Positions 13,963-31,918 of a stretch of DNA of 64,000 bases are shown piece after piece. This DNA comes from an uncultured Alphaproteobacteria bacterium (GTDB lineage: Bacteria; Pseudomonadota; Alphaproteobacteria; Rhodobacterales; Rhodobacteraceae): positions 121,100 through 185,099 of the forward strand of contig CACBAM010000001.1 of the NCBI GenBank assembly GCA_902537215.1, written 5' to 3'. Numbering within the stretch: the first letter of the stretch is position 1; each line of letters begins with the position of its first letter. The position numbers and the translations under genes are program-made. The notes beneath the pieces were generated by a model that was not told where the DNA came from, did not search any database, and saw only the letters and a list, made by a program, of their open reading frames with translations.

Positions 13963-14074
13963 ATTTGAATTGGGAAATATCTTCAAGGATTTTTAGTTTG
14001 TTTTAAATTAATGTATCTTGAGAAAATGGAATGTAATTTAAGCCTGGAAAAATAATTAAAAAAAAATTAAAGAT

Positions 14075-15891: not shown

Positions 15892-16786
15892 TTTCATAGA
15901 AGATGTTGAAAGCATTTATAACCTTAAAGGGAGTAAGGCGTTTCAGGGTTTTGAAATCAATAGAACCTTATTTGAAGGAAAGAGCGAATATCAAGATATT
16001 GCAATTTATGAGAACGATACACTTGGTCGTGTGCTAGCCATTGATGGTATTATTCAGATCACAGAGTGTGATGAATTTGTTTATCAAGAGATGATGACGC
16101 ATGTACCCCTTTTTTCGCATGAAAAACCAGAGCATGTTCTTATTATTGGCGGTGGTGATGGTGGGATTTTACGCGAAGTTCTTCGCCATAAAGGGATAAA
16201 GAGAGTTGTCATGGCAGAAATTGATCAGATGGTGATTGATGCCTGTGTTGAGTATATACCTAGCGTTAACAATGGAGGTAAAGTTTACCAAGATACCAGA
16301 GTGCAACTGATTGTTGGTGATGCTTTTGTGTATGTGAAAGAAACAGATTTAAAGTTCGATGCGGTTATAATTGACTCAACTGATCCTATAGGTCCTGGGG
16401 AGAAATTATTCAGCCATGAATTTTATAAAAACTTAGTTAAAATTCTTAAGGAAAATGCTGTGGTTTCGACCCAAGGAGGTATCCCTCAATTCCAGCCAGG
16501 TGAGGTTGGAGGCACTTTATCTTGCCTAAAGGAGGCAGGATTATGCGCTAGTTGTTATATTGCAGCGATCCCAACGTATTATGGCGGATACATGACACTA
16601 GGTTTTGGAGTTCTCAATTCTACTTGGTCACTACCCCTTTTAGAAACACTAAACAAACGTTTTAAAAGAGCATGTTTTAAAACTAGACATTACAGTCCAG
16701 AAATGCACTTGGCATCTTTTGTTCTTCCTCCATGGATCCGAGATGACATTAATAAAAGACCCAAGAAAGAAGAAGAGGCAGCATAA
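15875..16786 (+). CDS. speE: spermidine synthase (aminopropyltransferase)
   Basis: LIIGGGDGGILREVLRH, AEIDQMVID, DAVIIDSTDPIGPGEKLF. Confidence 0.9.
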   Translation: MSTRRNFIEDVESIYNLKGSKAFQGFEINRTLFEGKSEYQDIAIYENDTLGRVLAIDGIIQITECDEFVYQEMMTHVPLFSHEKPEHVLIIGGGDGGILREVLRHKGIKRVVMAEIDQMVIDACVEYIPSVNNGGKVYQDTRVQLIVGDAFVYVKETDLKFDAVIIDSTDPIGPGEKLFSHEFYKNLVKILKENAVVSTQGGIPQFQPGEVGGTLSCLKEAGLCASCYIAAIPTYYGGYMTLGFGVLNSTWSLPLLETLNKRFKRACFKTRHYSPEMHLASFVLPPWIRDDINKRPKKEEEAA

Positions 16787-16787
16787 A

Positions 16788-17201
16788 ATGAACCATCTCG
16801 ATAGCGATTATTTCGTAACATGTTCAAAAACCGGTGATCAATTTGCAGGAAGGCACATACTTGCTGATTTTTGGGATGTGGAACGAATGGGTGACTTAGA
16901 TTTTATAAAAGAAACAATAGAAGAAAGTGCTCGCAAGGCTGGCGCGATAATTCTGCATTCTTACTATCATCCTTTTGGTGAAGGTATGGGCGTAAGCGGT
17001 GTAACAGTTTTATCTGAAAGTCACATAAGTATACATACTTGGCCTGAACGTAATTTTGCTTCACTTGATATTTTCATGTGTGGGAATTGTGATCCGCGGA
17101 ATGCATTGGACTATTTACAAGAGATATTGAACCCATCTTCAGTCGATCAAAGCCTGAACCACAGAGGAGTGATTCCTGCAGTTGCGCGAATGTACAAGTG
17201 A
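16788..17201 (+). CDS. speH: S-adenosylmethionine decarboxylase proenzyme, class 1 (SpeH type)
   Basis: Canonical self-processing motif VLSESHISIHTWPE and DIFMCG. ATG at 16788 lies 2 nt after the speE stop and is preferred over the in-speE start at 16719. Confidence 0.85.
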   Translation: MNHLDSDYFVTCSKTGDQFAGRHILADFWDVERMGDLDFIKETIEESARKAGAIILHSYYHPFGEGMGVSGVTVLSESHISIHTWPERNFASLDIFMCGNCDPRNALDYLQEILNPSSVDQSLNHRGVIPAVARMYK

Positions 17202-17267
17202 AATTTTAAAAACGGAATAGTCCAAGGTAATTATATTCTAGAGCATCACCAAGCAATTGGGGACAAA

Positions 17268-17424
17268 TGGCTGGGACGGCAGGTTTCGAACCTACGGTGC
17301 ATTTGATCAAAACGCGTGGATAATGTTATGAGGAGTTATAAGGTTTCTAATAACCCTTTAAAATCATCCTTTTACTGTGATGCCTACTCTGAGTTAATAG
17401 GAGAGTTATGAAAAATGTTGTCAA
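17268..17424 (-). repeat. unit U1: strongly diverged tRNA-Gln 3'-half copy plus arm (outermost)
   Basis: TGGCTGGGACGGCAGGTTTCGAACCTACGGTGCATTTGATCAAAACGCG, followed by an arm with GTTATGAGGAGTTATAAGG ... CCCTTTAAAAT ... TGTTGTCAA. Confidence 0.75.
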
Positions 17425-17474
17425 AAAATTAACTAAAAAGAAATAAGTGTATTCATTTTTGCTTTATTACTTTA

Positions 17475-18860
17475 TTACTTTGTAATTATTGATGTTTCCA
17501 ATGCGTCGATGTAGTGAGTCCTCCAAATATTAATATTAAAAGAATGTAATTGATCAAAAGCATTGAGCCATCTCCTCAAGCGTTCCTTTTTAGGCATTTT
17601 TAGAGCATAATTCAATGCATTTGCTACTCCCTCCGGATCATGAGGGTTCACAATTAATGCGTCTGGTAATTCTTCTGCTGCGCCTGCAAATCTTGATAAA
17701 ATTAGCACTCCTGGATCACTCGCGCTCTGAGCTGCTATATATTCCTTTGCCACCAAATTCATTCCATCTCTTAGTGGTGTTACAAGTCCAATTCTGCTAT
17801 TTCTAAAAAATCCCATAAGACTTTTTTGCTGGAATCCTTTGTTGAGATACCTTATTGGCGTCCAATCAAAGTCACCATACGCACTATTTATTTTTCCAGC
17901 ACTAAGCTCTAATTTTTTTCTTATTTCTTTATATTGAAAAACAGAACCTCTTGAGGTAGGGGCTATTTGAAGCAAAGTTGTTGATCTGATGTGTTCACTA
18001 TGATTTTTTAGAAGATGGTTATACGCTGCGAATCTAAGCTCAAGTCCCTTCGAATAGTCTAGCCTATCGACGCCAATAATTAGTTTGTCCGTTTTAATAC
18101 TTTTTAGCAGTCTTTTCACCTGAGGAGAGTTATCAGTCTCTTCTGATATTCTTGTAACTTTGTTCGTATCTATAGATATTGGAAAATGTTTTACCTTAGA
18201 CTTTTTACCTAAAGCAAATATTGATCCATCTGGTTCAACTGATCCTCCTAACTCACTGATGATATAATCTAAAAAGGTAAGTACATGTTTCTTAGTTTGA
18301 AAGCCTATCAAGTCAAACTCTAAGAGTGCATCAACAAGTTCTCGATGATCAGGTAATGCAGTCAAAATTTCTTTTGATGGCCATGGTATATGTAAAAAGA
18401 AGCCTATTTTTTGTGTACATTTTAGCTTTCTCAACTCTCTAGCCATCAATAAAAAATGATAATCATGAACCCATATTAAATCTTCATTATTGAGAAGTTT
18501 TTTGATCTTTAAGGAAAATGACTCGTTAACGCTCTTATAACTCTCAAACTTTAATTTGGAATAATCTACTAAGTCCAATCTGTAGTGAAAAATAGGCCAC
18601 AGTACTTCGTTACAATATCCATTATAGTAATTTTCGTAATCTTTTTTGGTTAAATCAACAATGGCATAAGTTATTCCTTCATCCTTTTTTACATTTAGTT
18701 TGACGTCTTCATTTGTAGTAACTCTTCCACTCCAACCAAACCAAAGACCGCTTGTCTCCTGCAACGTATCATATAATGCAACTGCAAGTCCGCCAGCTGC
18801 CTCAGGTTTCTTTTCGTTGGGAAGCATGACCCTATTAGAAATAACGACTACTCTACTCAT
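17475..18860 (-). CDS. otsA: alpha,alpha-trehalose-phosphate synthase (GT20)
   Basis: VVISNRV, GGLAVAL, LWFGWSG, VHDYHFLL. 461 aa. Confidence 0.9.
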   Translation of the reverse strand: MSRVVVISNRVMLPNEKKPEAAGGLAVALYDTLQETSGLWFGWSGRVTTNEDVKLNVKKDEGITYAIVDLTKKDYENYYNGYCNEVLWPIFHYRLDLVDYSKLKFESYKSVNESFSLKIKKLLNNEDLIWVHDYHFLLMARELRKLKCTQKIGFFLHIPWPSKEILTALPDHRELVDALLEFDLIGFQTKKHVLTFLDYIISELGGSVEPDGSIFALGKKSKVKHFPISIDTNKVTRISEETDNSPQVKRLLKSIKTDKLIIGVDRLDYSKGLELRFAAYNHLLKNHSEHIRSTTLLQIAPTSRGSVFQYKEIRKKLELSAGKINSAYGDFDWTPIRYLNKGFQQKSLMGFFRNSRIGLVTPLRDGMNLVAKEYIAAQSASDPGVLILSRFAGAAEELPDALIVNPHDPEGVANALNYALKMPKKERLRRWLNAFDQLHSFNINIWRTHYIDALETSIITK

Positions 18861-18875
18861 AACTCTGCATTTTAT

Positions 18876-19703
18876 TTACCTAGATTTTAGAAGTTGCTTC
18901 ATTACTTCGTGAACGGATTTAACATTAGGTAAAAAGAAGTTGGCCTTACTTCTTTTATGATTTCCAACACGAACTGACCAGCCACCTTTCTTGTTGACAG
19001 TTTCAAAACCATCCTCATCGGTTTCATCATCACCGATAAAAATAGGTCTCCGTTTTATAAAAGGTTTAGTTCTCATAAAATATGAAATTGCTGTTCCTTT
19101 ATTGTGGCTTAGGGGTTTAACTTCCAAAACTTCCTTTCCTTTTAGTAAAGTTAAACTACGGTCACGTTTCGTGAGCTCCATTATAATTCTATCGATTTCT
19201 TTCCTGTCGATTGTTGAATTCCGAAAATGAATAGTTAAACTTGAACCCTTATTTTCAATCTCAATATTTTTTTTTCCATTAAGTAATTCTTCAATTTTAT
19301 GGGCAATTCTCTTTATGTTTCCAGTATTGGCCTGGTACTCCTTAATTCGGAGTGCATCTCTCAATTGTGCTCCGTGGTTCCCAGCAAAAGAAATTTTATT
19401 TTTGTCGAAAAGCCTATCTAGGTCATCTAAAGTTCTGCCACTTATAAGGCCTAACGCACCTTGAAGTCTATTACGGATGGTGTGCAGTTTTTTCTGCAAT
19501 CTAAAACAAGGTTTTATCAAGCTTGGACTATTCTCAATCTCATAGAGAGTGCCATCAACGTCTAGGAATAGAGCAACTTGTTGACAATCTTTCGGAAGTA
19601 AATTTACAGAGAATGGTGACGACACGTTTAAGGGTTCGTTTATTTGTTTAAAAAGGTGTAATCTATAAGCCTTATGGATACACGCAGTTGATCTAGCACT
19701 CAA
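18876..19703 (-). CDS. otsB: trehalose-6-phosphate phosphatase (HAD)
   Basis: LFLDVDGTL (HAD motif I), ISGRTLDDL, GDDETDEDGF. Lies immediately upstream of otsA. The start is uncertain (TTG). Confidence 0.8.
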   Translation of the reverse strand: MSARSTACIHKAYRLHLFKQINEPLNVSSPFSVNLLPKDCQQVALFLDVDGTLYEIENSPSLIKPCFRLQKKLHTIRNRLQGALGLISGRTLDDLDRLFDKNKISFAGNHGAQLRDALRIKEYQANTGNIKRIAHKIEELLNGKKNIEIENKGSSLTIHFRNSTIDRKEIDRIIMELTKRDRSLTLLKGKEVLEVKPLSHNKGTAISYFMRTKPFIKRRPIFIGDDETDEDGFETVNKKGGWSVRVGNHKRSKANFFLPNVKSVHEVMKQLLKSR

Positions 19704-19829
19704 AAAGCAAAGAAATGTAAAATAAGCAAGTCATATTTAGAGTATTTACAAAATTTATTTCTTGCAATAATTACGTTACGTAAACCTTATATTTTATCCA
19801 TTGGTGTATATCAATGGAAGTGATTTAAC

Positions 19830-19974
19830 GGTTAGCTTCTCAATTTTCAGCAATGGTACATTAGATAAAACCTGTATATTTTGTTATCAGGTCTTTTATA
19901 ACCCTTTAAAATAGTTCTTATCCTTCTCATATTTCTTATGTGTTATCGAGAAAATCACAAAAGCTATTGTCAAA
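19830..19974 (-). repeat. unit U2: nearly erased tRNA part plus well-preserved arm
   Basis: GGTACATTAGATAAAACCTG resembles GGTACACGGGATCAAAACCCG. The arm shares a 62-nt identical block with U3. Confidence 0.7.
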
Positions 19975-20060
19975 TCGACTTTTTAGTCTATCTCGATTTC
20001 TGTAACTAGAGGGTTTTGAGACATCGCCTCAGAAATAAGATTAAAAATTTCCTCTAAATA

Positions 20061-21569
20061 ATGATAAAAAAGATGGATTTAAAAATACTGTTTAAAAACG
20101 TCGCCGCATATATTGTCTTGGTGAAGAAATGTAAATTTATCGCAGCTATTTTTGCTGTTTATTTAAGTGTAGCTGAAAACAATCTTGCAGCTAATGCGCA
20201 GTTTTTTCAAAACATTACCGATAAAATAGAAAATAACGTACCGAGATTATCTTATGGCGTGGCCGTAACAGATTTTAACGATGATGGAAAAATGGAGTTT
20301 ATAGTTACAGGGTTTCGGTATCCTAATCTCGCACTGAGCTATGAGAATGGTTCATATACAAATATTAATTCTAGTAGACTATTTGCTGATGAAAAAAGGG
20401 CATCGATTGGAGTTGTTGCTTGTGATGTAGATCAGGATGGATATGAAGAAATTTATTTCTTGAATACCGACACTTATAGTGGAACGAAAAAATATTCAGA
20501 TCGTCTAATAGATGCGGACGAAACGATTTACGATATTTTCAGTTTTAAAAAAAATCAGGCAAACTTGAATCTTACGGCCGGTAGGTCGGTGGCTTGCGTT
20601 GATAGACATGGCAACGGTAACTATGGAATTTATGTCTCCAACTATGGGGGTCCAACAAGATTTTACGAGCTGAAAAGCGATATTATCCAAGATATCGCAC
20701 CTTCGCTTGGAATAAATGCTACGACCGGTGGTCGTGCTGTAGTAGCAGGGCATATTCTATCAGGAAAAGTCGATATTTTTGCTGCGAATGAACGGGGACC
20801 TAACTTTTTACTGATGAACAAGGGCGGCACATACACTGACAAAGCTTTGGAGTACGGTATCGATGATACTCTCCAAAATGGGAGAGGAACGGCTCTATCA
20901 GATATTGGTTATAATGGGAGCTTAGACCTTATTACAGGAAATTGGAATGGTTTTCATAGAATATACACTCATGCAAACAACACCTTCGTCGATACAGCGT
21001 CTTTAAATTTTAGACAACCTTCTAAAATAAGAACGGTTATATCCGCTGATTTTGATAACGATGGTTTTGATGAGATATTTTTGAACAATATCGGTCAACC
21101 AAATAAATTATTTAGAGTTCTAGATAACAATAAACTCGAACAGTTGGAATTGACGAATGCTCTAGAAAAGAAAGGTCTGGGCACTGGTGGAGCAGTAGCC
21201 GATTTAAACGGTGACGGAATTTTGGAGCTACTGATCGCTCATGGTGAAAGTGCTCCTGAACCATTAAGCCTTTTTTCAGCTAACGTTAAGGACGATTTTC
21301 AATATTTAAGAATAGAACCTAGAAACTCTTACGATGCACCAGCAAGAGGTGCTACCGTAACACTTAAGACAAATTTCAGAACCCATGCTAAAACTATAGA
21401 TGCAGGCTCTGGCTATTTATGCCAGATGGAACCAGTAGCTCATTTTGGAATCCGTAAAAATGAAGAGATTGAGTACATTCAGATAAATTGGACTGACGGT
21501 CAAAAATCAAAATACAAAATTGAAAAGCTGAACCATCAATATGTTTTCAACCAAGGTAAAACAAATTGA
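20061..21569 (+). CDS. secreted FG-GAP/VCBS repeat protein with ASPIC/UnbV-like C-terminus (CRTAC1 family)
   Basis: Repeated D.D.DG motifs (TDFNDDGKME, CDVDQDGYEE, ADFDNDGFDE, ADLNGDGILE). C-terminal GATVTLKT...DAGSGYLCQMEPVAHFGI. N-terminal signal or anchor. Confidence 0.75.
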   Translation: MIKKMDLKILFKNVAAYIVLVKKCKFIAAIFAVYLSVAENNLAANAQFFQNITDKIENNVPRLSYGVAVTDFNDDGKMEFIVTGFRYPNLALSYENGSYTNINSSRLFADEKRASIGVVACDVDQDGYEEIYFLNTDTYSGTKKYSDRLIDADETIYDIFSFKKNQANLNLTAGRSVACVDRHGNGNYGIYVSNYGGPTRFYELKSDIIQDIAPSLGINATTGGRAVVAGHILSGKVDIFAANERGPNFLLMNKGGTYTDKALEYGIDDTLQNGRGTALSDIGYNGSLDLITGNWNGFHRIYTHANNTFVDTASLNFRQPSKIRTVISADFDNDGFDEIFLNNIGQPNKLFRVLDNNKLEQLELTNALEKKGLGTGGAVADLNGDGILELLIAHGESAPEPLSLFSANVKDDFQYLRIEPRNSYDAPARGATVTLKTNFRTHAKTIDAGSGYLCQMEPVAHFGIRKNEEIEYIQINWTDGQKSKYKIEKLNHQYVFNQGKTN

Positions 21570-21570
21570 T

Positions 21571-22278
21571 ATGACCAGGTATATTTCCACACTTTTTGTC
21601 ATGTGCTTAATAATCCCCCCAATAAGCTTAGGAGAGTCTCGAAGTTCTGATAGTTTAAAATTGACACGTTATTATGAAGAGTTACGAGCAGATTGGGGGA
21701 AAATATTTCCGAACAAAAACAGAAATGCTGGCGGTGCTCTATTTTTTAAATATATTTTAGATAATTCAAATTCTAGAGATGAGTTTTTTGAGAAGAATAA
21801 GATGTATTGTAGTGTCTCTGGGTCACTTGTACGGCCAGGTTCTCAACCTGAATTTGTTTCTGTCAGAGGCCACGATGAAGAATTAATTTGCGGCTCGCTT
21901 TACAGATGTTGTTGGCCCTGCTCTTGTGATGTGATGAAATTTGTTCAGGTGCAGGCCCTCGAAAAAACATTTGATGATAAGACGGAATTAATCAACGTAT
22001 TAACAATCAAAAACCCATGTGAAAAACCAGATTTTCCTGAAGAGGTCGATAGAGAGTCCATTTGTGTGGGCACCTCACTAAATAAAAAACGAGTGACTGA
22101 AATAAATGGAAGGCTTGTAGTTGGAGTGCTATTCGAAAGCAAAATCTGTTCACCTAAGGACATTGAAAAGATAAATAGAGAAGTTATAACAGGAAGCTAC
22201 TGTCCACTTAGAAATAATACACCACTCAAAGAGGTCAGGGGAGGTATGGGGGACATTTTCATAAAAATGGCTAATTAG
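21571..22278 (+). CDS. secreted Cys-rich hypothetical protein (weak YHS-like segment)
   Basis: Signal peptide MTRYISTLFVMCLIIPPISLG. YCSVSGSLV...CGSLYRCCWPCSCDV. ATG lies 1 nt after the upstream stop. Confidence 0.45.
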   Translation: MTRYISTLFVMCLIIPPISLGESRSSDSLKLTRYYEELRADWGKIFPNKNRNAGGALFFKYILDNSNSRDEFFEKNKMYCSVSGSLVRPGSQPEFVSVRGHDEELICGSLYRCCWPCSCDVMKFVQVQALEKTFDDKTELINVLTIKNPCEKPDFPEEVDRESICVGTSLNKKRVTEINGRLVVGVLFESKICSPKDIEKINREVITGSYCPLRNNTPLKEVRGGMGDIFIKMAN

Positions 22279-22336
22279 ATTTTTATTTGATTTTGCTTTG
22301 AAAATTGATCACTTACCGTGCATGTTTAGCAATAAT

Positions 22337-22494
22337 TGGCTGGACTGATAGGATAGCAACCTACGGTACACGGGATCAAAACCCGTAGATATTGTTATCA
22401 GAAGTTATCAGGTTTCCTATGACCCTTTAAAATAGTTCTTATCCTTCTCATATTTCTTATGTGTTATCGAGAAAATCACAAAAACTGTTGTCAA
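22337..22494 (-). repeat. unit U3: tRNA-Gln 3'-half copy (6 mismatches) plus arm
   Basis: TGGCTGGACTGATAGGATAGCAACCTACGGTACACGGGATCAAAACCCG followed by the arm. Confidence 0.85.
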
Positions 22495-22577
22495 TAATCT
22501 TTAATTAATGGGATTATTCCTAAGGAAAGGTATAGAGATCACCTTGTTGAAACTTTTTTGAAGAAGATAGGTCAAAT

Positions 22578-23003
22578 ATGAAACATGAGAAAATTACATC
22601 AGAAAATGTAACGGAAAAATACGAGTATATTTTTGCAGATTGGGTAAAAGAATTAAACATTGAGTTTTGTGAGGTTCGAGAGCGTTATGTGAAAGCAAAG
22701 TTTAAAAATAAAGCTAAGTTTAGATTTTTTTCCGGAGCAGTTTGCGGTCAAGTTTTAATGGCTGTAGTAGATACGGTAATGTCAGTGACGATGGGAACAA
22801 CCGAAACTGCTGTTAGAGGTACATTATCTCAAAATAATAATTTTGTTAAACCTGCTACAGCAGATTTTTTTTATGTGGAGTGCTCTCTACAAAAAACTGG
22901 AAAATCTATAGCAATTGGAGAAACAAAAATATTTTCAGGCGACAACAAAGACTTGATCTGTCACTCTACCTCAATTTATCCAGTTAATAGTTTAAAAACA
23001 TAA
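22578..23003 (+). CDS. hotdog-fold (PaaI-like) thioesterase family protein
   Basis: 141 aa. The pattern G.V.GQVLMAVVDTVMS fits PaaI/DUF4442-type hotdog proteins. Confidence 0.5.
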   Translation: MKHEKITSENVTEKYEYIFADWVKELNIEFCEVRERYVKAKFKNKAKFRFFSGAVCGQVLMAVVDTVMSVTMGTTETAVRGTLSQNNNFVKPATADFFYVECSLQKTGKSIAIGETKIFSGDNKDLICHSTSIYPVNSLKT

Positions 23004-23034
23004 TGAATTTCTTTAAAAGCACCTAGTAGATAAT

Positions 23035-23185
23035 GTCGCAGGTTTCAAACCTACGGCACACGGAATCAAAAACCCCAAAATAATATTAAGAGGAGTTATT
23101 AGTTTTCTCACGATCTTCTAACATTGTTCTCATCCTTTTCATGCTCCTATTTAGTTATCAGGAAAATCATGAAAACTGTTATCAA
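23035..23185 (-). repeat. unit U4: diverged tRNA-Gln 3'-half copy plus arm
   Basis: GTCGCAGGTTTCAAACCTACGGCACACGGAATCAAAAACCCC, then an arm ending GTTATCAGGAAAATCATGAAAACTGTTATCAA. It overlaps the stop codon of the 23182 gene. Confidence 0.75.
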
Positions 23186-24000
23186 ATTTTCTCAGCGGTA
23201 ACTATTCGGTAAGGAAAAGGCATATTAACAATTCCGTCAATCTCGAACTCTTTAAATCTCTCAATAAGCTTTGACTCAATGCTAGGTATCTTTTTGGGAT
23301 CTTGAGAGTCTAACAAGCCTTTAGATCTTACCGCAACTTCTCTGTACATTTGTGGAATTGAATTTGCAGGCACTCCCAAATTAAAGACATTATTTACAGC
23401 TTCGAAATTTGTCATTACAAGACCTTGAGAAGAAAGCCGTTCTGATGCTCGGTGCTGATCACTAAAATCATCGATGGGAGGTGCTGTTGGCAATCCTACA
23501 TCATAGCTTCCTAACTCACCTATTGTTTCAGCAAGCGTTCCAAAAAACGGAGATTCTTGGACTGGGGCCCAAACAGTGAATACAAAACGTCCATTTTGTT
23601 TCAATACGCGTCTCACTTCTTTTATCGCTCTGTCGGGGTGAGCAAAATGTAACATTCCAAAAGTGCATAAAATTTTTGTAAAGCTACTGTCTCCATACTG
23701 AAGGTTTTCAGCATCAGCTTGTTCAAAATTGAGATTTGGATTTTGCTTTCGTGCCTCAAGCACCATAGCTTCAGCAAAATCAGTACCCACTACATTTTGT
23801 GTTATTTTTGCTATTTCATTTGTTCCATAACCTGGTCCAGATGCAAGCTCCAATACAATATCATCTCTTGAAAGGGTCAAAGCATTTACTGCTTTCGGTA
23901 TGATATTCTTGGCATTTGCACTAGCCCATTTATCATAGGTAGATGCCCTCTCTTCCCAACCATTCTTTTCAAAGTTTTTGAAATCTTCAAATTCAGTCAT
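23182..24000 (-). CDS. class I SAM-dependent methyltransferase
   Basis: VLELASGPGYGTNEIA (motif I) with the Methyltransf_11-like layout. 272 aa. Confidence 0.8.
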   Translation of the reverse strand: MTEFEDFKNFEKNGWEERASTYDKWASANAKNIIPKAVNALTLSRDDIVLELASGPGYGTNEIAKITQNVVGTDFAEAMVLEARKQNPNLNFEQADAENLQYGDSSFTKILCTFGMLHFAHPDRAIKEVRRVLKQNGRFVFTVWAPVQESPFFGTLAETIGELGSYDVGLPTAPPIDDFSDQHRASERLSSQGLVMTNFEAVNNVFNLGVPANSIPQMYREVAVRSKGLLDSQDPKKIPSIESKLIERFKEFEIDGIVNMPFPYRIVTAEKI

Positions 24001-24180
24001 TTTTATTCAACGGCTTTTTAATGCTTTTACGTTTTTTGATTAGCGAAGCAGACTATGTCAAAATAACACTTCAAAAGGCAGAGTCAAAAAAAAATGTTTA
24101 TCTAGTATGCCTAAAAGATTCTTGTCAAAAGGTCCAAAGATATCAACCATAAAATTATTGGGTTTGAGCAATTTAGAAAA

Positions 24181-24350
24181 TGGCTGGGGTGGTAGGATTC
24201 GAACCTACGGTACACGGGATCAAAACCCGTGGATATTGTTATCAGGAGTTATCAAAATTCGCATAACCCTTTAAAATAGTTCTTATCCTTCTCATGCTTC
24301 TTATGCGTTATCAGGAAAATCACGAAAACTGTTGTCAAAAGTGTTGTCAA
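24181..24350 (-). repeat. unit U5: perfect 49-nt tRNA-Gln 3' copy plus 121-nt arm
   Basis: 24181..24229 is identical to 30945..30993. The arm carries GTTATCAGG, GTTATCAAA, GTTATCAGG, GTTGTCAA and GTTGTCAA. Confidence 0.9.
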
Positions 24351-24494
24351 CAACTAGCATTTCCGTAATAGTTTCTAAAGTGAACTAAATCAAGGAACAG
24401 TCGATGGCGTTCTTAAATTTATTTTCTATAGATATAAACTACCTGATCTTGTTTCGCTGGTCAGGCATGCTCTCGATTATACAGATTGTCGCCC

Positions 24495-25856
24495 ATGAGT
24501 AAGTCAAGTGACATTGCTGACCTATTTGACCATCTGGAATTAAACGATGCTTTCCTTGCCGCGCAATACCCTGCTGATATCGAGGATTTTTGTAAAGTTT
24601 ATCCAGAAAAAGTTATTGGGTTAGCCCTAGTTGGCCCAAATGAAACAAATAGCTCAGCTTTTGAAATTATTGCTGAAAGAATATTGATGATAAATAGTGA
24701 GCATGGACCTACCAAGACGGCAGCAAATGATTTTAAAAAGGATTTAAAAAAGGCAAGTACCTATGAAATAAAAAACTATGAAATACTTCCGTGGTCAGAT
24801 ATTTCCATAGATCACCCCAAACAATTATTCGAAAGTCTTTCGAACTTTTTTGGATCTATGGGTCAAAAAAAAAATGCATTTGCAAAATCCAAAGTGGGCG
24901 GAAAATTCAAAGACACTTACTTTTCAATTGAAGGATGTGGACCTCCTCTAATTCTTTTCCCATTCACTCTGTCGGCAGCACAATGGAAACCTATAATACC
25001 ATTACTGGCAGAAAAATTTACAGTAATCACTTTAAGTGGGCCTAATTTAGGTTTTATTCCAGTTTTGGAAAGTCGTGCAGCGCTACCAACTTATCAAACT
25101 ATGATTTCATCATTGGTATCAATAATGAATATTACACCAAATGGAAAAATTTTAGAATTGGGTTGTGGGACTGGTGCTCTATGTCGTCAAGTTTTAAACT
25201 TAAGACCAGACCTTTCTGTGACCGGGGTTGATATAAATACCTACTTGTTGAATGGAGCTATCCAAATCGCTGAAAATGAAGATTTGTATGTTAATAATTA
25301 TATTGATGAGAAAGAATTTACAGTGAAGAATTTTTCTGAAGCTGGTGAATTAAACTTCGCTTACAGTGACGCCATCGATATACCCTTTCCTGATAACTTT
25401 TTTGATGCTGTTTATTCTGTAACTGTCTTGGAGGAATGTGATGCAGATAAAGCAATAAAAGAAATAGTGAGGGTAGTCAAACCAGGAGGACCTATAGGAA
25501 TAATTGTAAGAGCTATTGATATGCCCCAGTGGTTTAACTTCGATATAACTGGCGAATTAGAGCATAAGTTAAATATTCCCCTTCAATTAAAAAGTACTTA
25601 TGGCATTGCTGATAAATCACTTTATGACCAGATGCGCAAAAACGGACTTCATGAATCGATTAACTTTCCAAGCATGGTAGCTGTGCCCAGAGGCAAAAAC
25701 AAAAATTTATTTGAGTGGTTTCTGAGACGTACGCGACAAACTTTGAATGAAGATGAGAAAATTGAACTGGATGATGAGCTGAAAAAAATTTCTGATAAAT
25801 CTAACCTGATATACTCTATGCCATTTCACTGCTCAGTAGGTTGGAAGCAATATTAA
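24495..25856 (+). CDS. two-domain protein: degenerate alpha/beta-hydrolase-like N-domain plus class I SAM methyltransferase domain
   Basis: ILELGCGTGALCRQVL and VVKPGGPIG methyltransferase motifs. The N-terminal half has GCGPPLILFPF...FTVITLSGPNLG. The start is either ATG 24495 or TTG 24486. Confidence 0.65.
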   Translation: MSKSSDIADLFDHLELNDAFLAAQYPADIEDFCKVYPEKVIGLALVGPNETNSSAFEIIAERILMINSEHGPTKTAANDFKKDLKKASTYEIKNYEILPWSDISIDHPKQLFESLSNFFGSMGQKKNAFAKSKVGGKFKDTYFSIEGCGPPLILFPFTLSAAQWKPIIPLLAEKFTVITLSGPNLGFIPVLESRAALPTYQTMISSLVSIMNITPNGKILELGCGTGALCRQVLNLRPDLSVTGVDINTYLLNGAIQIAENEDLYVNNYIDEKEFTVKNFSEAGELNFAYSDAIDIPFPDNFFDAVYSVTVLEECDADKAIKEIVRVVKPGGPIGIIVRAIDMPQWFNFDITGELEHKLNIPLQLKSTYGIADKSLYDQMRKNGLHESINFPSMVAVPRGKNKNLFEWFLRRTRQTLNEDEKIELDDELKKISDKSNLIYSMPFHCSVGWKQY

Positions 25857-25909
25857 TGATACGCTTATAAAGACAAAAGCTACAAAACCACAAGGCTAAT
25901 TTTAGTAAT

Positions 25910-25940
25910 TGGCTGGGGTGGTGGGACTAGAACCTAAGGC
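25910..25940 (-). repeat. unit U6: truncated tRNA-Gln 3'-end remnant (no arm)
   Basis: TGGCTGGGGTGGTGGGACTAGAACCTAAGG matches the acceptor and T-arm part only. Confidence 0.7.
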
Positions 25941-25962
25941 TCTATAATGATAACTCTTGAAA

Positions 25963-27699
25963 TTATTTTTCAAAGAATGGTTTATATTCCCAATGAGTTT
26001 CAAAGAGATCTGGATCAGAGTAACCCTCAAAATTTTGAAATGAATAACCTGTTGGGCCTGTATAGTAAATAGTCCACTCTTTAAGCCATGCGTTCAACGG
26101 AGAAATCTTTTTAAACTGAAGTCCTCCCATGTTTAGAAAAATCCAGCCACCATGTTTATCCTGCGTAGGAGTATCGCAGTACATATCCATCAAACCATCG
26201 TTATTAACATCAATTAACTTGGTGCTACCGCAATATGAATTCCATCTATTACTTTCAGACTTAATATCTTTCTTCCAGGCTTTTACAGAAGTCCAGCTCT
26301 TTTTTCCTGAAATCATTGGAATTTGATCTGCGATGGTAAATTTACCCTCCCCATTATTAGACCAAATAGTGTGAGTTCCTCCAGCGTAAAGTGGGCCTAC
26401 GGTGGTTCCCGCTATATCTAGATCCCCATCTCCATCAAAGTCCCATGATACTAGATCTACGATGTGTGATAGTAAATATCCCGATCCATAAATGTCATAC
26501 GCTGGTGGAATTTTTTTCCAACCTGTTTTAAAACTTCCTTTACCATCCCCAAACAGAACTACGGTATTATTGTGTTTCTTACTACTATTATGTGAATACA
26601 ATTTTTTTTCAAACCAACCTCCACTAGCTATTAAATCAACTATTCCATCACCGTTGTAATCACCGCTCGTCACGGCAAAAGCAAATTGGTCAGCACACTG
26701 TTTTACAGTAAAGTTCCCAGCACCATCATTAAAATGGCAATATATCTTGCCCCCGCCTTTTGTATTTTCCCATTTAATATGGGGAGTTACCACATCTAAG
26801 TCCCCATCATGATCAATATCATTCACCGTAACGCCATGTGAAAAACCTTGGTATAGCCCTGTTTTTTCATCTACGAAAGCTCCCTTTTCCTTCACATGCT
26901 TCCAACCTTTGTCATTAGAAATGAAAACTATATCTGCTCCCCCATGATAAAACTTTCCTTTGTAAGTGTGGCCAAAAGCACTTGGGCAAAATACGTCATC
27001 TATTCCGTCATTGTTAAAATCGGCTAGTACCGGTCTCTGACAATTTCTACCCATAGAGGTATTATGCTCAAAAGCATTGATAACGGTTTCGTCTCGTTCA
27101 TTAATACTTACTGAAAATGCAGTAAAATTTAAGTAACGGTCATTACCACTTTTTAGTTCGCACAACGGGACACCTATAGATGTGAGGGTATAGCCATTAG
27201 GACAAACTTCCATCTCATAAGACATGAGTAAATCTTGGCGACCGTCATTATTCAAATTTCCGAATGCCATATGATTTATGTAGAATACCTCTCTATTTTC
27301 AGATGCATTTTTTCTTTGAAATAGATCAGAGGGTAAAAAATATGGTGAGTTTGAGTCCGGTATTATTTTCGATTGATTTGAAATAAAGTTTCCAAAAAAG
27401 TGTACCTTTAATTTATTTTTCGTTTCCTCAATTTTTGGAATTCCTAAACTTATCACTGAAGTTTTTAACTCTATCAATTCATTATCGTCAATGGTTCCAT
27501 CGAACACTTTGTTATTGTCGGCATAATATTTATTTAATGCCTTTATTGTATTTTTTCCTTTTATCCCGTCTTCTGTTCCGGCTGCATAACCTAATTGATT
27601 GAGCATATATTGGCTACCTCGAACGTATGAATTAGAGTTCGCTGCCATGCTTTGAAAAAATATAAATAAGGCTATTACTAAAGTCTTGATAATTTTCAT
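25963..27699 (-). CDS. secreted peptidoglycan-binding-domain plus FG-GAP/VCBS repeat protein
   Basis: Signal peptide. PG_binding_1-like LNQLGYAAGTEDGIKGKNTIKAL. Repeats ADFNNDGIDD, NDIDHDGDLD, GDYNGDGIVD, WDFDGDGDLD, IDVNNDGLMD. Confidence 0.7.
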   Translation of the reverse strand: MKIIKTLVIALFIFFQSMAANSNSYVRGSQYMLNQLGYAAGTEDGIKGKNTIKALNKYYADNNKVFDGTIDDNELIELKTSVISLGIPKIEETKNKLKVHFFGNFISNQSKIIPDSNSPYFLPSDLFQRKNASENREVFYINHMAFGNLNNDGRQDLLMSYEMEVCPNGYTLTSIGVPLCELKSGNDRYLNFTAFSVSINERDETVINAFEHNTSMGRNCQRPVLADFNNDGIDDVFCPSAFGHTYKGKFYHGGADIVFISNDKGWKHVKEKGAFVDEKTGLYQGFSHGVTVNDIDHDGDLDVVTPHIKWENTKGGGKIYCHFNDGAGNFTVKQCADQFAFAVTSGDYNGDGIVDLIASGGWFEKKLYSHNSSKKHNNTVVLFGDGKGSFKTGWKKIPPAYDIYGSGYLLSHIVDLVSWDFDGDGDLDIAGTTVGPLYAGGTHTIWSNNGEGKFTIADQIPMISGKKSWTSVKAWKKDIKSESNRWNSYCGSTKLIDVNNDGLMDMYCDTPTQDKHGGWIFLNMGGLQFKKISPLNAWLKEWTIYYTGPTGYSFQNFEGYSDPDLFETHWEYKPFFEK

Positions 27700-27803
27700 C
27701 AGACGATTGCTCCTGGCGAAAAAAGTAGCTTAGAAATTTCTCTATGTAAATAGCAAGGCAGATATTGAAATATCAATCTTACCCTCACAGAAAAAAGTAT
27801 AAG

Positions 27804-27974
27804 TGGCTGGGGTGGTAGGATTCGAACCTACGGTACACGGGATCAAAACCCGTGGATATTGTTATCAGGAGTTATCAGGATTCTCATAAGACCTTTAAAA
27901 TAGTTCTTATGCTTCTCGTGCTTCTGATGCGTTATCAGGAAAATCACGAAAAGTGTTGTCAAAATTGTTGTCAA
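27804..27974 (-). repeat. unit U7: perfect 49-nt tRNA-Gln 3' copy plus 122-nt arm
   Basis: 27804..27852 is identical to 30945..30993. GTTATCA occurs at 27861, 27871 and 27931; GTTGTCA at 27955 and 27967. Confidence 0.9.
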
Positions 27975-27979
27975 TATTC

Positions 27980-29374
27980 CTATTTTTTTCTGACGTTACG
28001 CCTGGAATTTTGTTTGCTTCTTTTCTTTTTTTTTCGATCATTTTTCATTTGAACAAGTTGTTCTTCGCCAAGACTTTCTACCTCCTCTATAGGAGGTAGT
28101 TTTCCTTTGAAATTTTCAATTAGCGCTAAGGCCAAATTTTCATTAGAGAACCGAGTTAATAGCTCATTAGCAAACTTAAGTTCACTAGAACTATTTTTTT
28201 TGTTTCTTGAAAGGTAGTTTATGATCTTTTCATTATCTTTATGTTCTATTTCTTCTTGTGAAAGAAATTTATTAATAACCGGTCTTACCTTTGCAGAATT
28301 GATCAATTTTTCATATTTTCTTTTCTCGCCAGGTGAACAAAAAAGAATACTTCGACCCTTGTTCCCAGCTCTCCCGGTTCGCCCACTTCTGTGTATTAAG
28401 GTTTCTGGATTATAAGGGAGTTCAGCATGTATAACTATATCCAGGTTAACCAGGTCAATACCTCTTGCTGCTACGTCTGTCGCAACACATATCTTACACC
28501 TACCATTTTTTATGGATTGTAATGCCTTGAACCTCTCTGATTGATTTAATGCACCAGATAAGGAGACAACAGAAAAACCTCTATTTAATATTCTAGAAGA
28601 GATATGCGTTACAGCATTCCTAGTAGAGCAAAAAATAATAATAGTCTTATCATCATGAAATCGGAGAAAGTTGAATATTGCATTTTCAATATCATGTTTT
28701 TTTACTAAATATGTTTCATAAGAAATATCAGTGTGGGCTTTGCCAAGACTAGTAGCTTCAATTCTGACTGCGTTTTTTTGGTACTTTGATGCTAATGACA
28801 ATATTTTTTTTGGGAGAGTTGCCGAAAACATAAGTACCCTCTTATTTGCGGGACTTTGATTTACAATCATATCTAAGTCTTGTTTAAAGCCTAAATCAAG
28901 CATTTCATCAGCTTCATCAAGGACAAGCGATCTTAAATAATTTAAGTGGAAAGTTTTCCGACGTATATGGTCATTAATCCTTCCTGGTGTTCCTATTAAA
29001 AGATTAACTCCTTTAGAAATATTTTTTCTTTCTTTTTTTATATCCATCCCACCGATCGCTGTTGAGATTCTGATTTCAGTTTTAGAAAACAGCCATTCTA
29101 ACTCATTAAAAACCTGTAAAGCTAATTCTCGTGTGGGGGTAACGACTAGGGTTTTAAGTTTGTTATCTGAATCCAGAATTTCTTTAAGTCCAGCAACCGA
29201 TATTGACAACCCATAAGCAAGTGTTTTGCCAGAGCCTGTTTGGGAGCTCACCAGAAGATCTTTATCATTGTTACCAGGATCAAGCACTAAGCTTTGAACT
29301 GTTGTTAGTTTGTCATACCCTTTTTCTTTTATTGAGAATTGTAATTCTTCAGGAATAGATTTTGTTTCAAGCAT
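27980..29374 (-). CDS. DEAD-box ATP-dependent RNA helicase
   Basis: SQTGSGKT (motif I), DEAD, SAT, HRSGRTGRAG. Lys/Arg-rich C-terminal tail. Confidence 0.9.
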   Translation of the reverse strand: MLETKSIPEELQFSIKEKGYDKLTTVQSLVLDPGNNDKDLLVSSQTGSGKTLAYGLSISVAGLKEILDSDNKLKTLVVTPTRELALQVFNELEWLFSKTEIRISTAIGGMDIKKERKNISKGVNLLIGTPGRINDHIRRKTFHLNYLRSLVLDEADEMLDLGFKQDLDMIVNQSPANKRVLMFSATLPKKILSLASKYQKNAVRIEATSLGKAHTDISYETYLVKKHDIENAIFNFLRFHDDKTIIIFCSTRNAVTHISSRILNRGFSVVSLSGALNQSERFKALQSIKNGRCKICVATDVAARGIDLVNLDIVIHAELPYNPETLIHRSGRTGRAGNKGRSILFCSPGEKRKYEKLINSAKVRPVINKFLSQEEIEHKDNEKIINYLSRNKKNSSSELKFANELLTRFSNENLALALIENFKGKLPPIEEVESLGEEQLVQMKNDRKKKKRSKQNSRRNVRKK

Positions 29375-29432
29375 TCGCTCAATCTATAGAATAATAAAAA
29401 TAAAGATATAGTTAAGATTTTTAAATTTCGTC

Positions 29433-30185
29433 TCATCTAATCTTTTGATCAAAAGAAAGATTGCCACCTGCCCAAATTGGTAAATTCTCTTTATCATTGA
29501 GCCATTTTTCTTCATCAGGGGTATTAGCTCTTCCAAACTCTGAATTTCTTTGCGGGTAACGCCCAAATTTTTCCAAAACCTGCTTATGTTGGTCTACCGC
29601 CTTCTTATTTCTCCCTTCAAATAGAGTGAAATTAGGATAAGCACCAATTGCCATGTCAATTATTTCGCATGCACGAACAAGGTCGACTATTTCTTCTGAA
29701 TGAGCCAAAGCCCAGGGAAGTAAATATAGTAGTGCTGGAGGCAATTTTAAAGTTTGTTGGACTTTCTCTTTACTAACTAGGTCTCGAACGAGCTCGCGTC
29801 CTATGTAGTCATACGAAAAAGCTTCAGCCGTCCCTCGAAAACATGAGCGAGATAGTTGGTCTGCTAGCAATACTCTAGCAACCTGGCCTTCAAGGGTAAA
29901 CCATTCATCTTCAATTAGGGTTTGTGGATCAGCTTTCAATTCGCGAATAACAGATGAAAATGGCTTGCAAATATCGTCTAAAGCGGTTCCACTCCTAAAC
30001 CATATGCCTAATAGTGGTTCCACTGTTTCATCGTAAAAAAGGCTTTTTCTATCATTAGCATTATTAATATCGCAGCCACACATATAATTCAAAACACTAC
30101 TTGGAGAACGAGGATTAGTAAGAGCTTTCAGGACTGCGGGTTTTCTACTAAATTGCTCAGGGGTAAGATCGTCTGGTAACATCAT
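29433..30185 (-). CDS. DUF924 family protein
   Basis: LADQLSRSCFRG and FGRYPQRNSEFGRANTPDEEKWL are typical of DUF924. Confidence 0.7.
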   Translation of the reverse strand: MMLPDDLTPEQFSRKPAVLKALTNPRSPSSVLNYMCGCDINNANDRKSLFYDETVEPLLGIWFRSGTALDDICKPFSSVIRELKADPQTLIEDEWFTLEGQVARVLLADQLSRSCFRGTAEAFSYDYIGRELVRDLVSKEKVQQTLKLPPALLYLLPWALAHSEEIVDLVRACEIIDMAIGAYPNFTLFEGRNKKAVDQHKQVLEKFGRYPQRNSEFGRANTPDEEKWLNDKENLPIWAGGNLSFDQKIR

Positions 30186-30374
30186 TTAAAAAAGAAGCAA
30201 AGAATGATTTGGTTGGGGAAAGTTTCAATGATCGTAAAATATTAGAGAAAACAATTGAAGAGATATGTAGGAAAAAGGGGTGGAGTTTTAGGTCGTAAAA
30301 ATGTTCAAATTTTTTTCAACCACAGAGTTGAAAGCGTTGTAAAAATCTATGGAGTGGCATTTGCAAAAATTGGT

Positions 30375-30719
30375 TTACGATTTAAAATAGGTTTTATCGA
30401 TCTCTTCATCTTCAGGAAGTAGAGCCGAAGTGAAACGTTCTGTCTCCATCACCATTGAATTAAAAAAACGGTCCATACCCCAAGCATCTAGCTGTTTATA
30501 AACATGGTCTTCGCTAACAGCTTGGAAATGAGTGCAATAAAAGTTGCTTTTACTACCTTGCCATACTTGAATTACAGTCGCAAATTCGCCAACAGTAGTT
30601 TTAGCCCATTCTCCGTGGGTTGCTACATCTGCATATGTTTCCCTAAAATACGATTTATACGCTTTTGCCGCTTCATCATTGTGAGCGTCATGAATAGCCA
30701 TAAAATTTTTAATCATCAA
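30375..30719 (-). CDS. hypothetical protein (114 aa)
   Basis: Intact ORF (TTG-ATG start). No recognisable family. Confidence 0.4.
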   Translation of the reverse strand: MMIKNFMAIHDAHNDEAAKAYKSYFRETYADVATHGEWAKTTVGEFATVIQVWQGSKSNFYCTHFQAVSEDHVYKQLDAWGMDRFFNSMVMETERFTSALLPEDEEIDKTYFKS

Positions 30720-30829
30720 ATGGATCCTTGTTAAATATTAGCTTCTTATACGATATATTAAATGAAACCATTCATAACTTTAAGTTTACTTTCCTAAATT
30801 GGAAGCCAAAATCTCCCACTGAAAGTAAA

Positions 30830-30849
30830 TGTTGTCAAAGTGTTGTCAA
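30830..30849 (-). repeat. orphan arm terminus (TGTTGTCAAAGTGTTGTCAA) without a tRNA part
   Basis: Matches the distal end of the U5 and U7 arms. Lies 95 nt from the 3' end of the intact tRNA-Gln. Confidence 0.6.
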
Positions 30850-30944
30850 AAACGGATTATTCTTCAAACTATAGATTTTGATCCGGTAGATAGCTAATCA
30901 GTAATATCCAAGAAAACATAGTATACTTTAGCTAATTTTAGGAG

Positions 30945-31019
30945 TGGCTGGGGTGGTAGGATTCGAACCTACGGTACACGGGATCAAAACCCGCTGCCTT
31001 ACCGCTTGGCTACACCCCA
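30945..31019 (-). tRNA. tRNA-Gln (anticodon UUG)
   Basis: The 75-nt reverse complement folds as a cloverleaf. Acceptor TGGGGTG/CACCCCA has U1:A72, typical of bacterial tRNA-Gln. Other elements: D-arm GCC/GGC, anticodon arm GCGGG-TTTTGAT-CCCGT, T-arm GTAGG-TTCGAAT-CCTAC, discriminator G and encoded CCA. Confidence 0.9.
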
Positions 31020-31072: not shown

Positions 31073-31918
31073 TCAGTCAAAAGATTTTACGACATCATCA
31101 ATTGCTTTAATTTTACTTAATAGCCCTGATAACTGGTCAAGAGGAAGCATAGAAGCACCATCTGACGGCGCTGTCTCAGGCTTCTCGTGGGTTTCAATGA
31201 ACACACCAGCGATACCAACTGCTGTGCCCGCTTTTGCTAAAGTTTCAATGAACTCTCTTGAGCCACCACTCTCTGAGCCTTTTCCTCCTGGTTGTTGAAT
31301 AGAATGAGTAATATCTAAAACGGCTGGGAACCCACTTTGTCTAAGAATTTCTATGGAACGCATGTCGCAAACCAAATCATTATAGCCAAAAGTAGTGCCT
31401 CGTTCACAAAGGAGTAAATTTTTGTTACCTGTAGATATAAACTTTTCAGCCACCTGCTGCATTTCAGAGGGTGATAAAAATTGCCCCTTCTTTATATTTA
31501 CGGGTTTATTTGTTTTACTAGCTGCGATGATTAAATCTGTCTGACGGCATAGAAAGGCAGGTATTTGAAGAATATCAACCTCTTTTGCTACAAGCTCGCA
31601 TTGTTCGGGTGTGTGTATGTCTGTCAATGTGGATATATTTAGACTTCTCTTTAATTTTTGAAAGATTTTAAGACCTTCGTCAATTCCAAGACCACGCTTT
31701 GATAAATGTGAAGTTCGATTGGCCTTGTCAAATGACGATTTAAAGACAAAGTTAATGGCATTATGGTCACAGATTTCTATTAATTTTTCGGCGATCATCA
31801 TTGCATGTTCGAGGCTTTCAAGCTGGCATGGACCAGAAATAAGTGTCACGGGGTACTTATTTGAGATTTTGAGACCATTTAGTTCAATTGTATGATCAGC
31901 GAGTTCAGTATTATTCAT
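31073..31918 (-). CDS. kdsA: 3-deoxy-8-phosphooctulonate (KDO8P) synthase
   Basis: LISGPCQLES, FKSSFDKANRTS, DITHSIQQPGG. 281 aa. Confidence 0.9.
   Translation of the reverse strand: MNNTELADHTIELNGLKISNKYPVTLISGPCQLESLEHAMMIAEKLIEICDHNAINFVFKSSFDKANRTSHLSKRGLGIDEGLKIFQKLKRSLNISTLTDIHTPEQCELVAKEVDILQIPAFLCRQTDLIIAASKTNKPVNIKKGQFLSPSEMQQVAEKFISTGNKNLLLCERGTTFGYNDLVCDMRSIEILRQSGFPAVLDITHSIQQPGGKGSESGGSREFIETLAKAGTAVGIAGVFIETHEKPETAPSDGASMLPLDQLSGLLSKIKAIDDVVKSFD

Follow-up and report, generated by a model that had tools for sequence, protein, structure and literature searches.

A tRNA-Gln-anchored genomic island of small gene cassettes separated by a conserved arm and a partial tRNA in an alphaproteobacterial lineage

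We analysed a 64,000-nucleotide (nt) stretch of DNA from an uncultured member of the Rhodobacteraceae (assembly GCA_902537215.1, contig CACBAM010000001.1, positions 121,100 to 185,099), hereafter called the window, with position 1 as its first letter. Between 17.26 and 31.02 kb it holds an island of small gene cassettes separated by copies of the 3' part of a tRNA gene. Both ARAGORN and Rfam (RF00005, 67.8 bits) recognised the gene itself as an intact tRNA-Gln(UUG) on the minus strand (30945-31019), in agreement with an initial annotation made by a model from the letters alone. The copied part, 49 nt long, begins in the anticodon stem and runs to the encoded CCA (tRNA positions 27-75). Exact copies were found at 24181-24229 and 27804-27852, and no match occurred in 100 shuffled sequences. 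The copy at 22337-22385 carried six mismatches by direct count, those at 17268, ~19830 and 23035 were diverged, and a truncated fragment was left at 25910-25940. All copies in the window share a single orientation, and each one reported by the initial annotation, whether exact, mismatched, truncated or diverged, was recovered at the position given there.

A profile of the repeated unit was then built from the window copies and searched across the whole window with nhmmer. Six full units of ~170-200 nt were detected (E = 1e-32 to 5e-68), and in each an arm of ~120-125 nt stood in place of the tRNA 5' half, as had been claimed for every untruncated copy. All six lie on the minus strand. Counting from the tRNA gene, which is the putative primary insertion site (attB/attI-like), unit 1 (27794-28002, E = 9e-67) consists of an arm at 27853-~27984 and the exact tRNA 3' part at 27804-27852, and unit 2 (24174-24374, E = 5e-68) of an arm and the exact copy at 24181-24229. 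Unit 3 (23019-23192, E = 2e-39) is diverged in both arm and tRNA part; unit 4 (22328-22506, E = 2e-55) retains a near-consensus arm beside the tRNA part with six mismatches; unit 5 (19818-19977, E = 2e-32) is strongly decayed; and unit 6 (17259-17459, E = 9e-44) is a decayed copy at the array's distal end. Besides these, the profile matched the tRNA-Gln gene, the truncated tRNA 3' fragment, which has no arm (25902-25940, minus strand, E = 0.022), and a weak arm-start remnant, a TGTTGTCAA doublet at 30827-30865 on the minus strand, ~95 nt downstream of tRNA-Gln (E = 0.089). No further unit was found with this profile outside the island within the window. Unit decay rose with distance from tRNA-Gln. 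The units are spaced 0.7-3.6 kb apart, or 0.7-3.1 kb if the truncated fragment is taken as a boundary, with 1-3 genes per interval, the gene number given in the initial annotation. The G+C content of the window is 33-42%, and the island is not distinct in composition.

Comparison with relatives resolved the tRNA-proximal interval (27804-30944) into three cassettes whose separating units have eroded, so that the window holds about nine cassettes and not the seven first counted. Cassette 1 (30331-30944, minus strand), delimited as a homology block shared with AG-422-M03, encodes a 114-amino-acid (aa) protein of unknown function (30375-30719). Of the cassette's arm, only some 25 nt are left (~30331-30352), and AG-422-M03 has a full unit after the same gene. 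The 3' end of this open reading frame (ORF) (…DKTYFKS*, 30364-30404) shows 73% DNA likeness over 41 nt to the central arm, which we judged coincidental because in AG-422-M03 the arm begins ~35 nt after the stop codon. Cassette 2 (29431-30191, minus strand) encodes a DUF924 protein (29433-30185) and has lost its unit in the window. In two other loci (L099:1726-1782 and L015:6675-6711) the DUF924 cassette ends with a 31-37-nt armless tRNA 3' fragment abutting the stop codon; in the window this fragment is also gone, with the junction near 29430. Cassette 3 (27980-29429, minus strand) carries a DEAD-box helicase gene (27980-29374), ends with unit 1, and stands directly after the tRNA in AG-422-M03.

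Farther from the tRNA, the truncated fragment forms the boundary between cassette 4, which encodes a 578-aa FG-GAP repeat protein (25963-27699, minus strand) and is the first after the tRNA in the metagenome-assembled genome (MAG) SP3058, and cassette 5, which encodes a 456-aa methyltransferase-domain protein (24486-25856, plus strand) and ends with unit 2; the two genes are found apart in other genomes. Unit 3 ends cassette 6, with a 272-aa methyltransferase (23182-24000, minus strand); unit 4 ends cassette 7, with a 141-aa 4HBT thioesterase (22578-23003, plus strand); and unit 5 ends cassette 8, with a 502-aa FG-GAP/UnbV_ASPIC protein and a 245-aa protein of unknown function (20061-22278, plus strand). 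Cassette 9 (17475-19703, minus strand) encodes trehalose-6-phosphate synthase (otsA) and its phosphatase (otsB) and is followed by unit 6, which adjoins speH. This otsA/otsB cassette is the oldest one and is fixed in several relatives; unit 6 is orthologous in four relatives, and unit 5 has orthologues in L001, AG-899-C03 and AG-905-N21. In unit 5 a 10-nt deletion has removed one CTGATAAC repeat. The same loss of one of two tandem CTGATAAC repeats was seen at L001:14150-14324, in a different cassette, and the two deletions are probably independent slippage events.

Read in tRNA orientation, the unit consensus was TTTTGACAAC-ACTTTTGACAACAGTTTTCGTGATTTTCCTGATAACGCATAAGAAGCATGAGAAGGATAAGAACTATTTTAAAGGGTTATGAGAATCCTGATAACTCCTGATAACAATATCCAC followed by GGGTTTTGATCCCGTG...CCAGCCA. 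The arm, ~125 nt long, contains five same-orientation TGAYAAC repeats, two of them TTGACAAC and three CTGATAAC, and TGTTGTCAA occurs eight times in the window, always inside the island, against an expected 0.7. The junction of arm and tRNA part forms a perfect 6-bp inverted repeat, CACGGG-TTTTGAT-CCCGTG, around the 7-nt anticodon loop. Both edges of the unit are sharp. In an alignment of 52 units the 5' edge of the arm falls at the TTGACAAC doublet, with upstream sequence specific to the preceding cargo, and at the other end cassette-specific sequence starts from the first base after ...GCCA. Among 15 relatives, 11 different first cassettes begin exactly after the ...GCCA of tRNA-Gln, and the tRNA-Gln gene is identical in 14 of the 15, the fifteenth having one D-loop substitution. 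Most arm columns were 85-100% conserved among 41 young units, and the arms of AG-435-J13 were 88-95% identical to those of the window, with a kdsA-side flank only 71% identical. We also asked which part of a unit travels with which neighbour. Arm identity tracked the tRNA-proximal cargo (median 0.895 versus 0.833, p = 0.0014), and identity of the tRNA part tracked the cargo on the distal side (p = 0.003), with a weaker association for that on the proximal side (p = 0.013); an association of the arm with proximal cargo and of the tRNA part with distal cargo is predicted by a crossover inside the core.

To survey the distribution of the unit, we searched 185,579 species-representative genomes with a degenerate arm pattern and then applied the arm model to the 109 stretches obtained. 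Matches came from one lineage only, comprising GORG single-cell genomes ('uncultured Alphaproteobacteria'), a 'Rhodobacteraceae MED-G56' MAG, a Rhodobacterales MAG and a MAG labelled Rickettsiales; a search for kdsA homologues added a single amplified genome (L001) and a 'Paracoccaceae' MAG (L138). In total the unit was present in 17 species-representative genomes, two further assemblies and 21 metagenome contigs, the latter with many new cargos. Across the whole collection it stood on 1-2 contigs per genome, always in clustered same-orientation arrays. The genome-wide dispersal that the initial annotation had named as its own refuting case was not seen: among the genomes scanned, the unit is confined to this type of tRNA-Gln array locus and to this lineage. 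Neighbouring units stood 0.7-7.3 kb apart (median 2.5 kb). In natural populations assemblies break at the array, as expected of a heterogeneous population. Many of the metagenome contigs start or end inside a unit, and two 75-kb Tara scaffolds (L137, L141) end inside tRNA-Gln (~10927-10975).

The proximal flank is conserved. In the window, kdsA (31073-31918, minus strand) is followed by mrp/mnh antiporter genes, and the order mrp genes, kdsA, tRNA-Gln, array was found wherever an assembly extends to the proximal end. The distal flank of this genome (15439-17201, plus strand) comprises an S-adenosylmethionine (AdoMet) decarboxylase paralogue, speE and a second AdoMet decarboxylase (speH), and speE/speH form the distal end in five of the assemblies that reach it. 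In the metagenome contigs L115, L118 and L125, units adjoin other genes instead. The ancestral order speH-tRNA-Gln-kdsA proposed in the initial annotation is plausible; it is not secure, given these three loci and homologues of genes left of speE that lie inside cassettes. The genes concerned (12298-15028: GFA, DUF1330, EamA and an unknown 317-aa protein) have their homologues in unit-bounded cassettes of the same three loci; no unit remnant was detectable at 12298-15028, and the island may once have extended further left of speE. The two speH-type paralogues, at 15439-15891 and 16719-17201, enclose speE (15875-16786), and the second overlaps its end.

Cassette maps were drawn for 20 genomes and the 21 metagenome contigs and compared by all-against-all blastn. 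Cassette number, content and order varied between genomes and were uncoupled from phylogeny, so that the prediction of variable cassettes between kdsA-tRNA-Gln and the distal flank was borne out in at least 19 other assemblies and the 21 contigs. L001 is without four of the window cassettes and has an extra alcohol-dehydrogenase (ADH) gene. In AG-918-C19 the two-cassette block of FG-GAP/UnbV and otsBA (F4F7|otsBA) is proximal to the ADH-DUF924-helicase cassettes, whereas in the window it is distal. The helicase, the 578-aa FG-GAP and other cassettes each stand directly after the tRNA in some genome, and all cassette boundaries fall at units. Identities differed from cassette to cassette within the same pair of genomes: between the window and AG-426-E23 they were 99.5% for the helicase cassette, 84.5% for the thioesterase cassette and 93.5% for the flank, and three cassettes shared by AG-430-P14 and AG-892-M03 were 99.1, 94.9 and 91.3% identical. 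Such values show that single cassettes have had independent histories and have been exchanged horizontally. MAG SP3058 (L020+L002+L028, PBGQ01000036.1) contains a 6-gene cassette (periplasmic-binding/FecCD/ABC transporter and EamA) twice, at ~7.4-13.3 and 16.9-22.8 kb. Both copies are 99.5-99.7% identical to a third copy in L050, and the pair reflects either real duplication of the cassette or an artefact of MAG assembly, Ns being present in the contig.

The cargo was then screened with Pfam, covering the window genes, ~60 further cassette families from the genomes and 33 new metagenome ORFs, about 100 families from at least 25 arrays, and the gene tables were also inspected. Cassettes contain 1-2 genes in the window and 1-7 elsewhere, measure 0.7-7 kb and have genes on both strands; they encode TRAP, ABC and EamA transporters, dehydrogenases, methyltransferases, hydrolases, FG-GAP proteins, otsAB, a thiamine operon, flagellin and BLUF proteins. 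Among the matches listed for these families there was no Phage_integrase, Resolvase, Recombinase, transposase, phage or replication domain. The same screens gave no primase, helicase-primase or gene like those of phage-inducible chromosomal islands, the sole helicase being DEAD-box cargo of the RNA-helicase type. Coding sequence makes up ~90% of the cassettes, and the non-coding DNA of a cassette (median 194 nt, at most 795 nt) is too short to hold decayed integrase genes. The claim that the cassettes are non-autonomous therefore stands, with about 100 cargo families free of integrases and ~10% non-coding DNA.

A helper was sought beyond the cargo as well, and none was found in the loci, in viral contigs, or in phage or plasmid collections. 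Matches in the phage and plasmid collections were confined to the tRNA part of the unit. A scan of IMG/VR with the TTGACAAC doublet returned nine contigs, four of which matched the arm model across the doublet only (E = 2e-4 to 7e-3).

We read the 17.26-31.02-kb interval as an additive genomic island seeded at tRNA-Gln(UUG), with about nine non-autonomous cassettes that would be moved in trans by a tyrosine recombinase, and we hold this reading with somewhat better than even confidence. The arm and the core with its 7-nt overlap are built like the attP of a tyrosine integrase with crossover in the anticodon loop, here with an arm on one side; the resemblance to a lambda-type attP lies in the core inverted repeats around the overlap and in the arm-type repeats. 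Identity between attP and attB over the stretch from the anticodon stem to the 3' end of the tRNA is described as typical of tyrosine integrases crossing in the anticodon loop (Williams 2002, cited in 10.1101/2020.12.28.424599). In tRNA orientation, a cassette would consist of its cargo, then the attP-like arm of ~125 nt, then a core equal to tRNA positions 27-75. The gene for a heterobivalent tyrosine recombinase would lie outside the array, either in the core genome or on a transient element, and this enzyme would act on the circular cassette, whose arm-core would recombine, inside the anticodon loop, with the tRNA gene or with an internal core. The tRNA 3' part of the incoming cassette would rebuild tRNA-Gln, and the displaced old 3' part, now behind the arm of the newcomer, would shift inward. 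Repeated insertion would produce the array, and excision between any two cores would cause one or several cassettes to be lost, reshuffled or transferred. Units would decay once internal and idle; the arms, conserved in young units and decayed deep in the array, fit selection confined to the time in which a cassette can move. Three parts of this scheme are inferred from the anatomy, namely the recombinase, the site of crossover and the circular intermediates. Service in trans is favoured because no recombinase was found and because the cassettes are too compact for decayed autonomous elements. The integrase-driven insertion claimed in the initial annotation rests on the anatomy of the site; no integrase was found in the window, in the arrays or linked to the unit.

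Several observations weigh against a trans-acting recombinase. In the known classical attP sites of the lambda type, arm sites lie to both sides (P and P'), and when the 300 nt that follow the tRNA part were compared in 95 units there was no conserved motif and no TGAYAAC enrichment, that is, no P' arm. The co-travel effects are of modest size, and the sequences compared are very similar. The crossover point is not mappable because the tRNA parts are nearly identical, and mapping by shared variants in them was uninformative because the internal copies decay independently. The initial annotation had advised a search for linked integrases and circular forms, and neither came to light: no integrase was present in any array or linked to the unit in metagenome contigs, and no assembled metagenome contig carried a circular cassette junction. 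A motif search of the window, itself a weak test, gave no ORF with a tyrosine-recombinase box II or HxLRH-type motif, the unit was absent from IMG/VR viral contigs, with four of five pattern scans (arm, junction, tRNA-half) giving no matches, and the Pfam screens on alignments rest on the best 25 families, among which a recombinase match with E > ~3e-5 could be hidden. Finally, RecA-dependent exchange within the 50-170 nt that units share would yield the same cassette boundaries. That last point introduces a competing explanation, according to which the units are scars of historical integrase activity and cassettes now move only by RecA-dependent recombination between the ~170-nt units, which would serve as portable homology arms kept similar by gene conversion, the DNA being taken up via vesicles, gene transfer agents or transformation. 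Units share these 50-170 nt at 85-100% identity, enough for RecA; boundaries at units are also expected from homologous recombination and, the cores being identical, are the same as under the integrase model; neither integrases nor circles were found; and one-sided sites pose no problem to it. The heads of gene transfer agents in Rhodobacterales hold ~4 kb, and the 2.5-kb median unit distance would fit small packaged fragments. Left unexplained, however, are the five phased TGAYAAC repeats, the sharp 5' edge of the arm, and a non-coding arm conserved above core coding DNA between species that are 71% identical. Insertion at a single resident unit or straight after the tRNA, as for the 11 first cassettes, is awkward for ends-out recombination, and old internal units decay instead of being homogenised. 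We consider recombination by RecA alone a rather unlikely account, though the most serious competitor.

A trans-acting recombinase also has to be set against serial integration followed by decay, in which the cassettes would be remnants of autonomous integrase-bearing elements (tycheposon-, phage- or island-like) whose mobility genes were deleted. This is the standard model for Prochlorococcus islands (10.1101/2020.12.28.424599), and both the partial tRNAs and the ageing from proximal to distal fit it. We nevertheless think it improbable, since at least 25 arrays with about 100 cargo families yielded no recognisable integrase or replication gene, the cassettes are 90% coding with no more than 795 nt of non-coding DNA, the same small cassettes stand intact in different positions and species, and the arm is complete, with an identical edge, in every young cassette, an outcome not expected of random deletions. 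Least probable is that the unit is not a recombination site at all and is instead a dispersed repeat of the repetitive extragenic palindromic (REP) or miniature inverted-repeat transposable element (MITE) type, a small RNA gene, a small ORF or a promoter/terminator module with a tRNA fragment. TTGACA-like hexamers in the arm do give weak promoter-like matches, and the partial tRNA is matched below the Rfam threshold. Yet in the genomes scanned no unit was met outside tRNA-Gln arrays, and the window has units in the island only. It folded no better than shuffled sequences on either strand (z = -1.44 and -1.07), only the tRNA stem-loops pairing, and contained no Rfam family beyond the sub-threshold partial tRNA; an attC-like folded site or structured RNA was rejected on these grounds. 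A small ORF seemed possible at first, an apparent frame of 25-29 codons in the arm closing at one position in three window copies, each with a different stop codon. It was rejected because in the 52-unit alignment the stop is unconserved and frames shift, and because codon periodicity is lacking (p = 0.31). A promoter or terminator role was rejected as well, the hexamers being generic and unit orientation showing no bias relative to neighbouring genes (20:15 and 21:15).

The class of island to which the array belongs is already described, and the unusualness asserted in the initial annotation was too strong: comparable islands are known from Alteromonas, Candidatus Actinomarinales, Candidatus Methylopumilus and Prochlorococcus. 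In published reports, tRNA-seeded additive islands with small cassettes, direct repeats of the tRNA 3' part and metabolic cargo occur in Alteromonas (PMC4898812) and Candidatus Actinomarinales (PMC7771536), and flexible genomic island fGI-2 of Candidatus Methylopumilus, with 20-bp tRNA-Lys repeats, is an additive island of the same class (PMC10872708). The present array has all three of their features, namely a tRNA hotspot, variable cassettes and one-orientation repeats of the tRNA 3' part, and shares with them small cassettes with metabolic or transport cargo at a fixed tRNA, an order uncoupled from phylogeny and near-identical cassettes in divergent genomes. It differs in that those islands, as far as described, have the tRNA-fragment repeat only, whereas here a conserved arm of ~125 nt with five phased repeats is added, no recombinase was found across at least 25 arrays, and the cassette edges are mapped to the base. 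The islands and tycheposons of Prochlorococcus are also tRNA-seeded, and tycheposons carry their own tyrosine or serine recombinase and a replication module and span 4-200 kb (10.1101/2020.12.28.424599). Like them, the array lies in a streamlined marine host, grows from a tRNA, has its insertions marked by partial tRNAs, carries niche-adaptive cargo and is most heterogeneous beside the tRNA. Unlike them, it has neither a recombinase of its own nor replication or packaging genes, consists of 0.7-7-kb cassettes without mobility genes that are regularly punctuated by a conserved arm, and uses tRNA-Gln, which is not among the seven Prochlorococcus target tRNAs (10.1101/2020.12.28.424599).

The array is also like an integron in its non-autonomous cassettes, each of cargo plus one site, its one primary insertion point from which older cassettes are pushed away, its shuffling and sharing of cassettes between species, and an enzyme that is not in the cassette. 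In contrast to integrons, there is no intI beside the array, the flanks being kdsA/mrp and speE/speH; the site is not attC-folded and looks like a double-stranded attP of arm and core; cassettes are multi-gene operons on both strands (up to seven genes) with no Pc-driven expression logic; and the primary site is an essential tRNA gene, which would be rebuilt at each insertion. Cis-mobilisable elements (CIMEs) lack integration and transfer genes, have att sites recognised by the integrase of a related element and accrete in tandem at the same attB (PMC6323972). The cassettes, each bounded by tRNA cores and without mobility genes, match this formal description. CIMEs, however, are defined via a known mobilising integrative and conjugative element and are usually single decayed elements, whereas here dozens of cassettes share one arm family, with no known helper. 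No description of this array or arm, and no mention of these single amplified genomes by name, was found in the literature, the searchable library being incomplete. The coupling of a tRNA repeat to a conserved, one-sided, repeat-bearing arm, the lack of mobility genes across many arrays, and boundaries defined to the base appear to be new.

Ocean bacteria with streamlined genomes carry few mobile elements, which raises the question of how they acquire and shuffle niche genes; additive tRNA islands are widely seen, and neither their moving units nor their machinery has been well defined. The moving unit can be delimited to the base here: it consists of cargo, 125-nt arm and tRNA core, is found in at least 17 species and contains no recombinase. 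It can be used as bait for the enzyme, as a marker for cassettes, circles, and vesicle- or particle-borne copies in metagenomes, and as a substrate in recombination assays. Going further, and only tentatively, we suggest that the locus might be an integron-like chromosomal gene-capture platform, in which an essential tRNA would be the primary site, the ~170-nt double-stranded arm-core module the cassette site, and the whole cassette pool of a clade comprising at least 17 species would be served by a trans-acting tyrosine recombinase, which might be a domesticated enzyme of the core genome. Such a platform could be a general exchange route for streamlined marine bacteria without conventional mobile elements. 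If a single trans-acting recombinase does serve the array, it would be an independently arisen functional analogue of integrons.

Elsewhere in the window, a tRNA-Arg(TCT) gene lies at 59371-59447, a tRNA that is a tycheposon target in Prochlorococcus; no match to the tRNA-Gln arm or unit model was found near it, and repeats of the tRNA-Arg 3' half were not searched for. Several larger cargos were met in other arrays. L134 contains a 7-gene thiamine salvage/biosynthesis operon, L120 and L123 encode very long flagellin-domain proteins (845-1034 aa), and L122 and L138 carry a 4-gene ATP-grasp/Alpha-E/transglutaminase/proteasome set.

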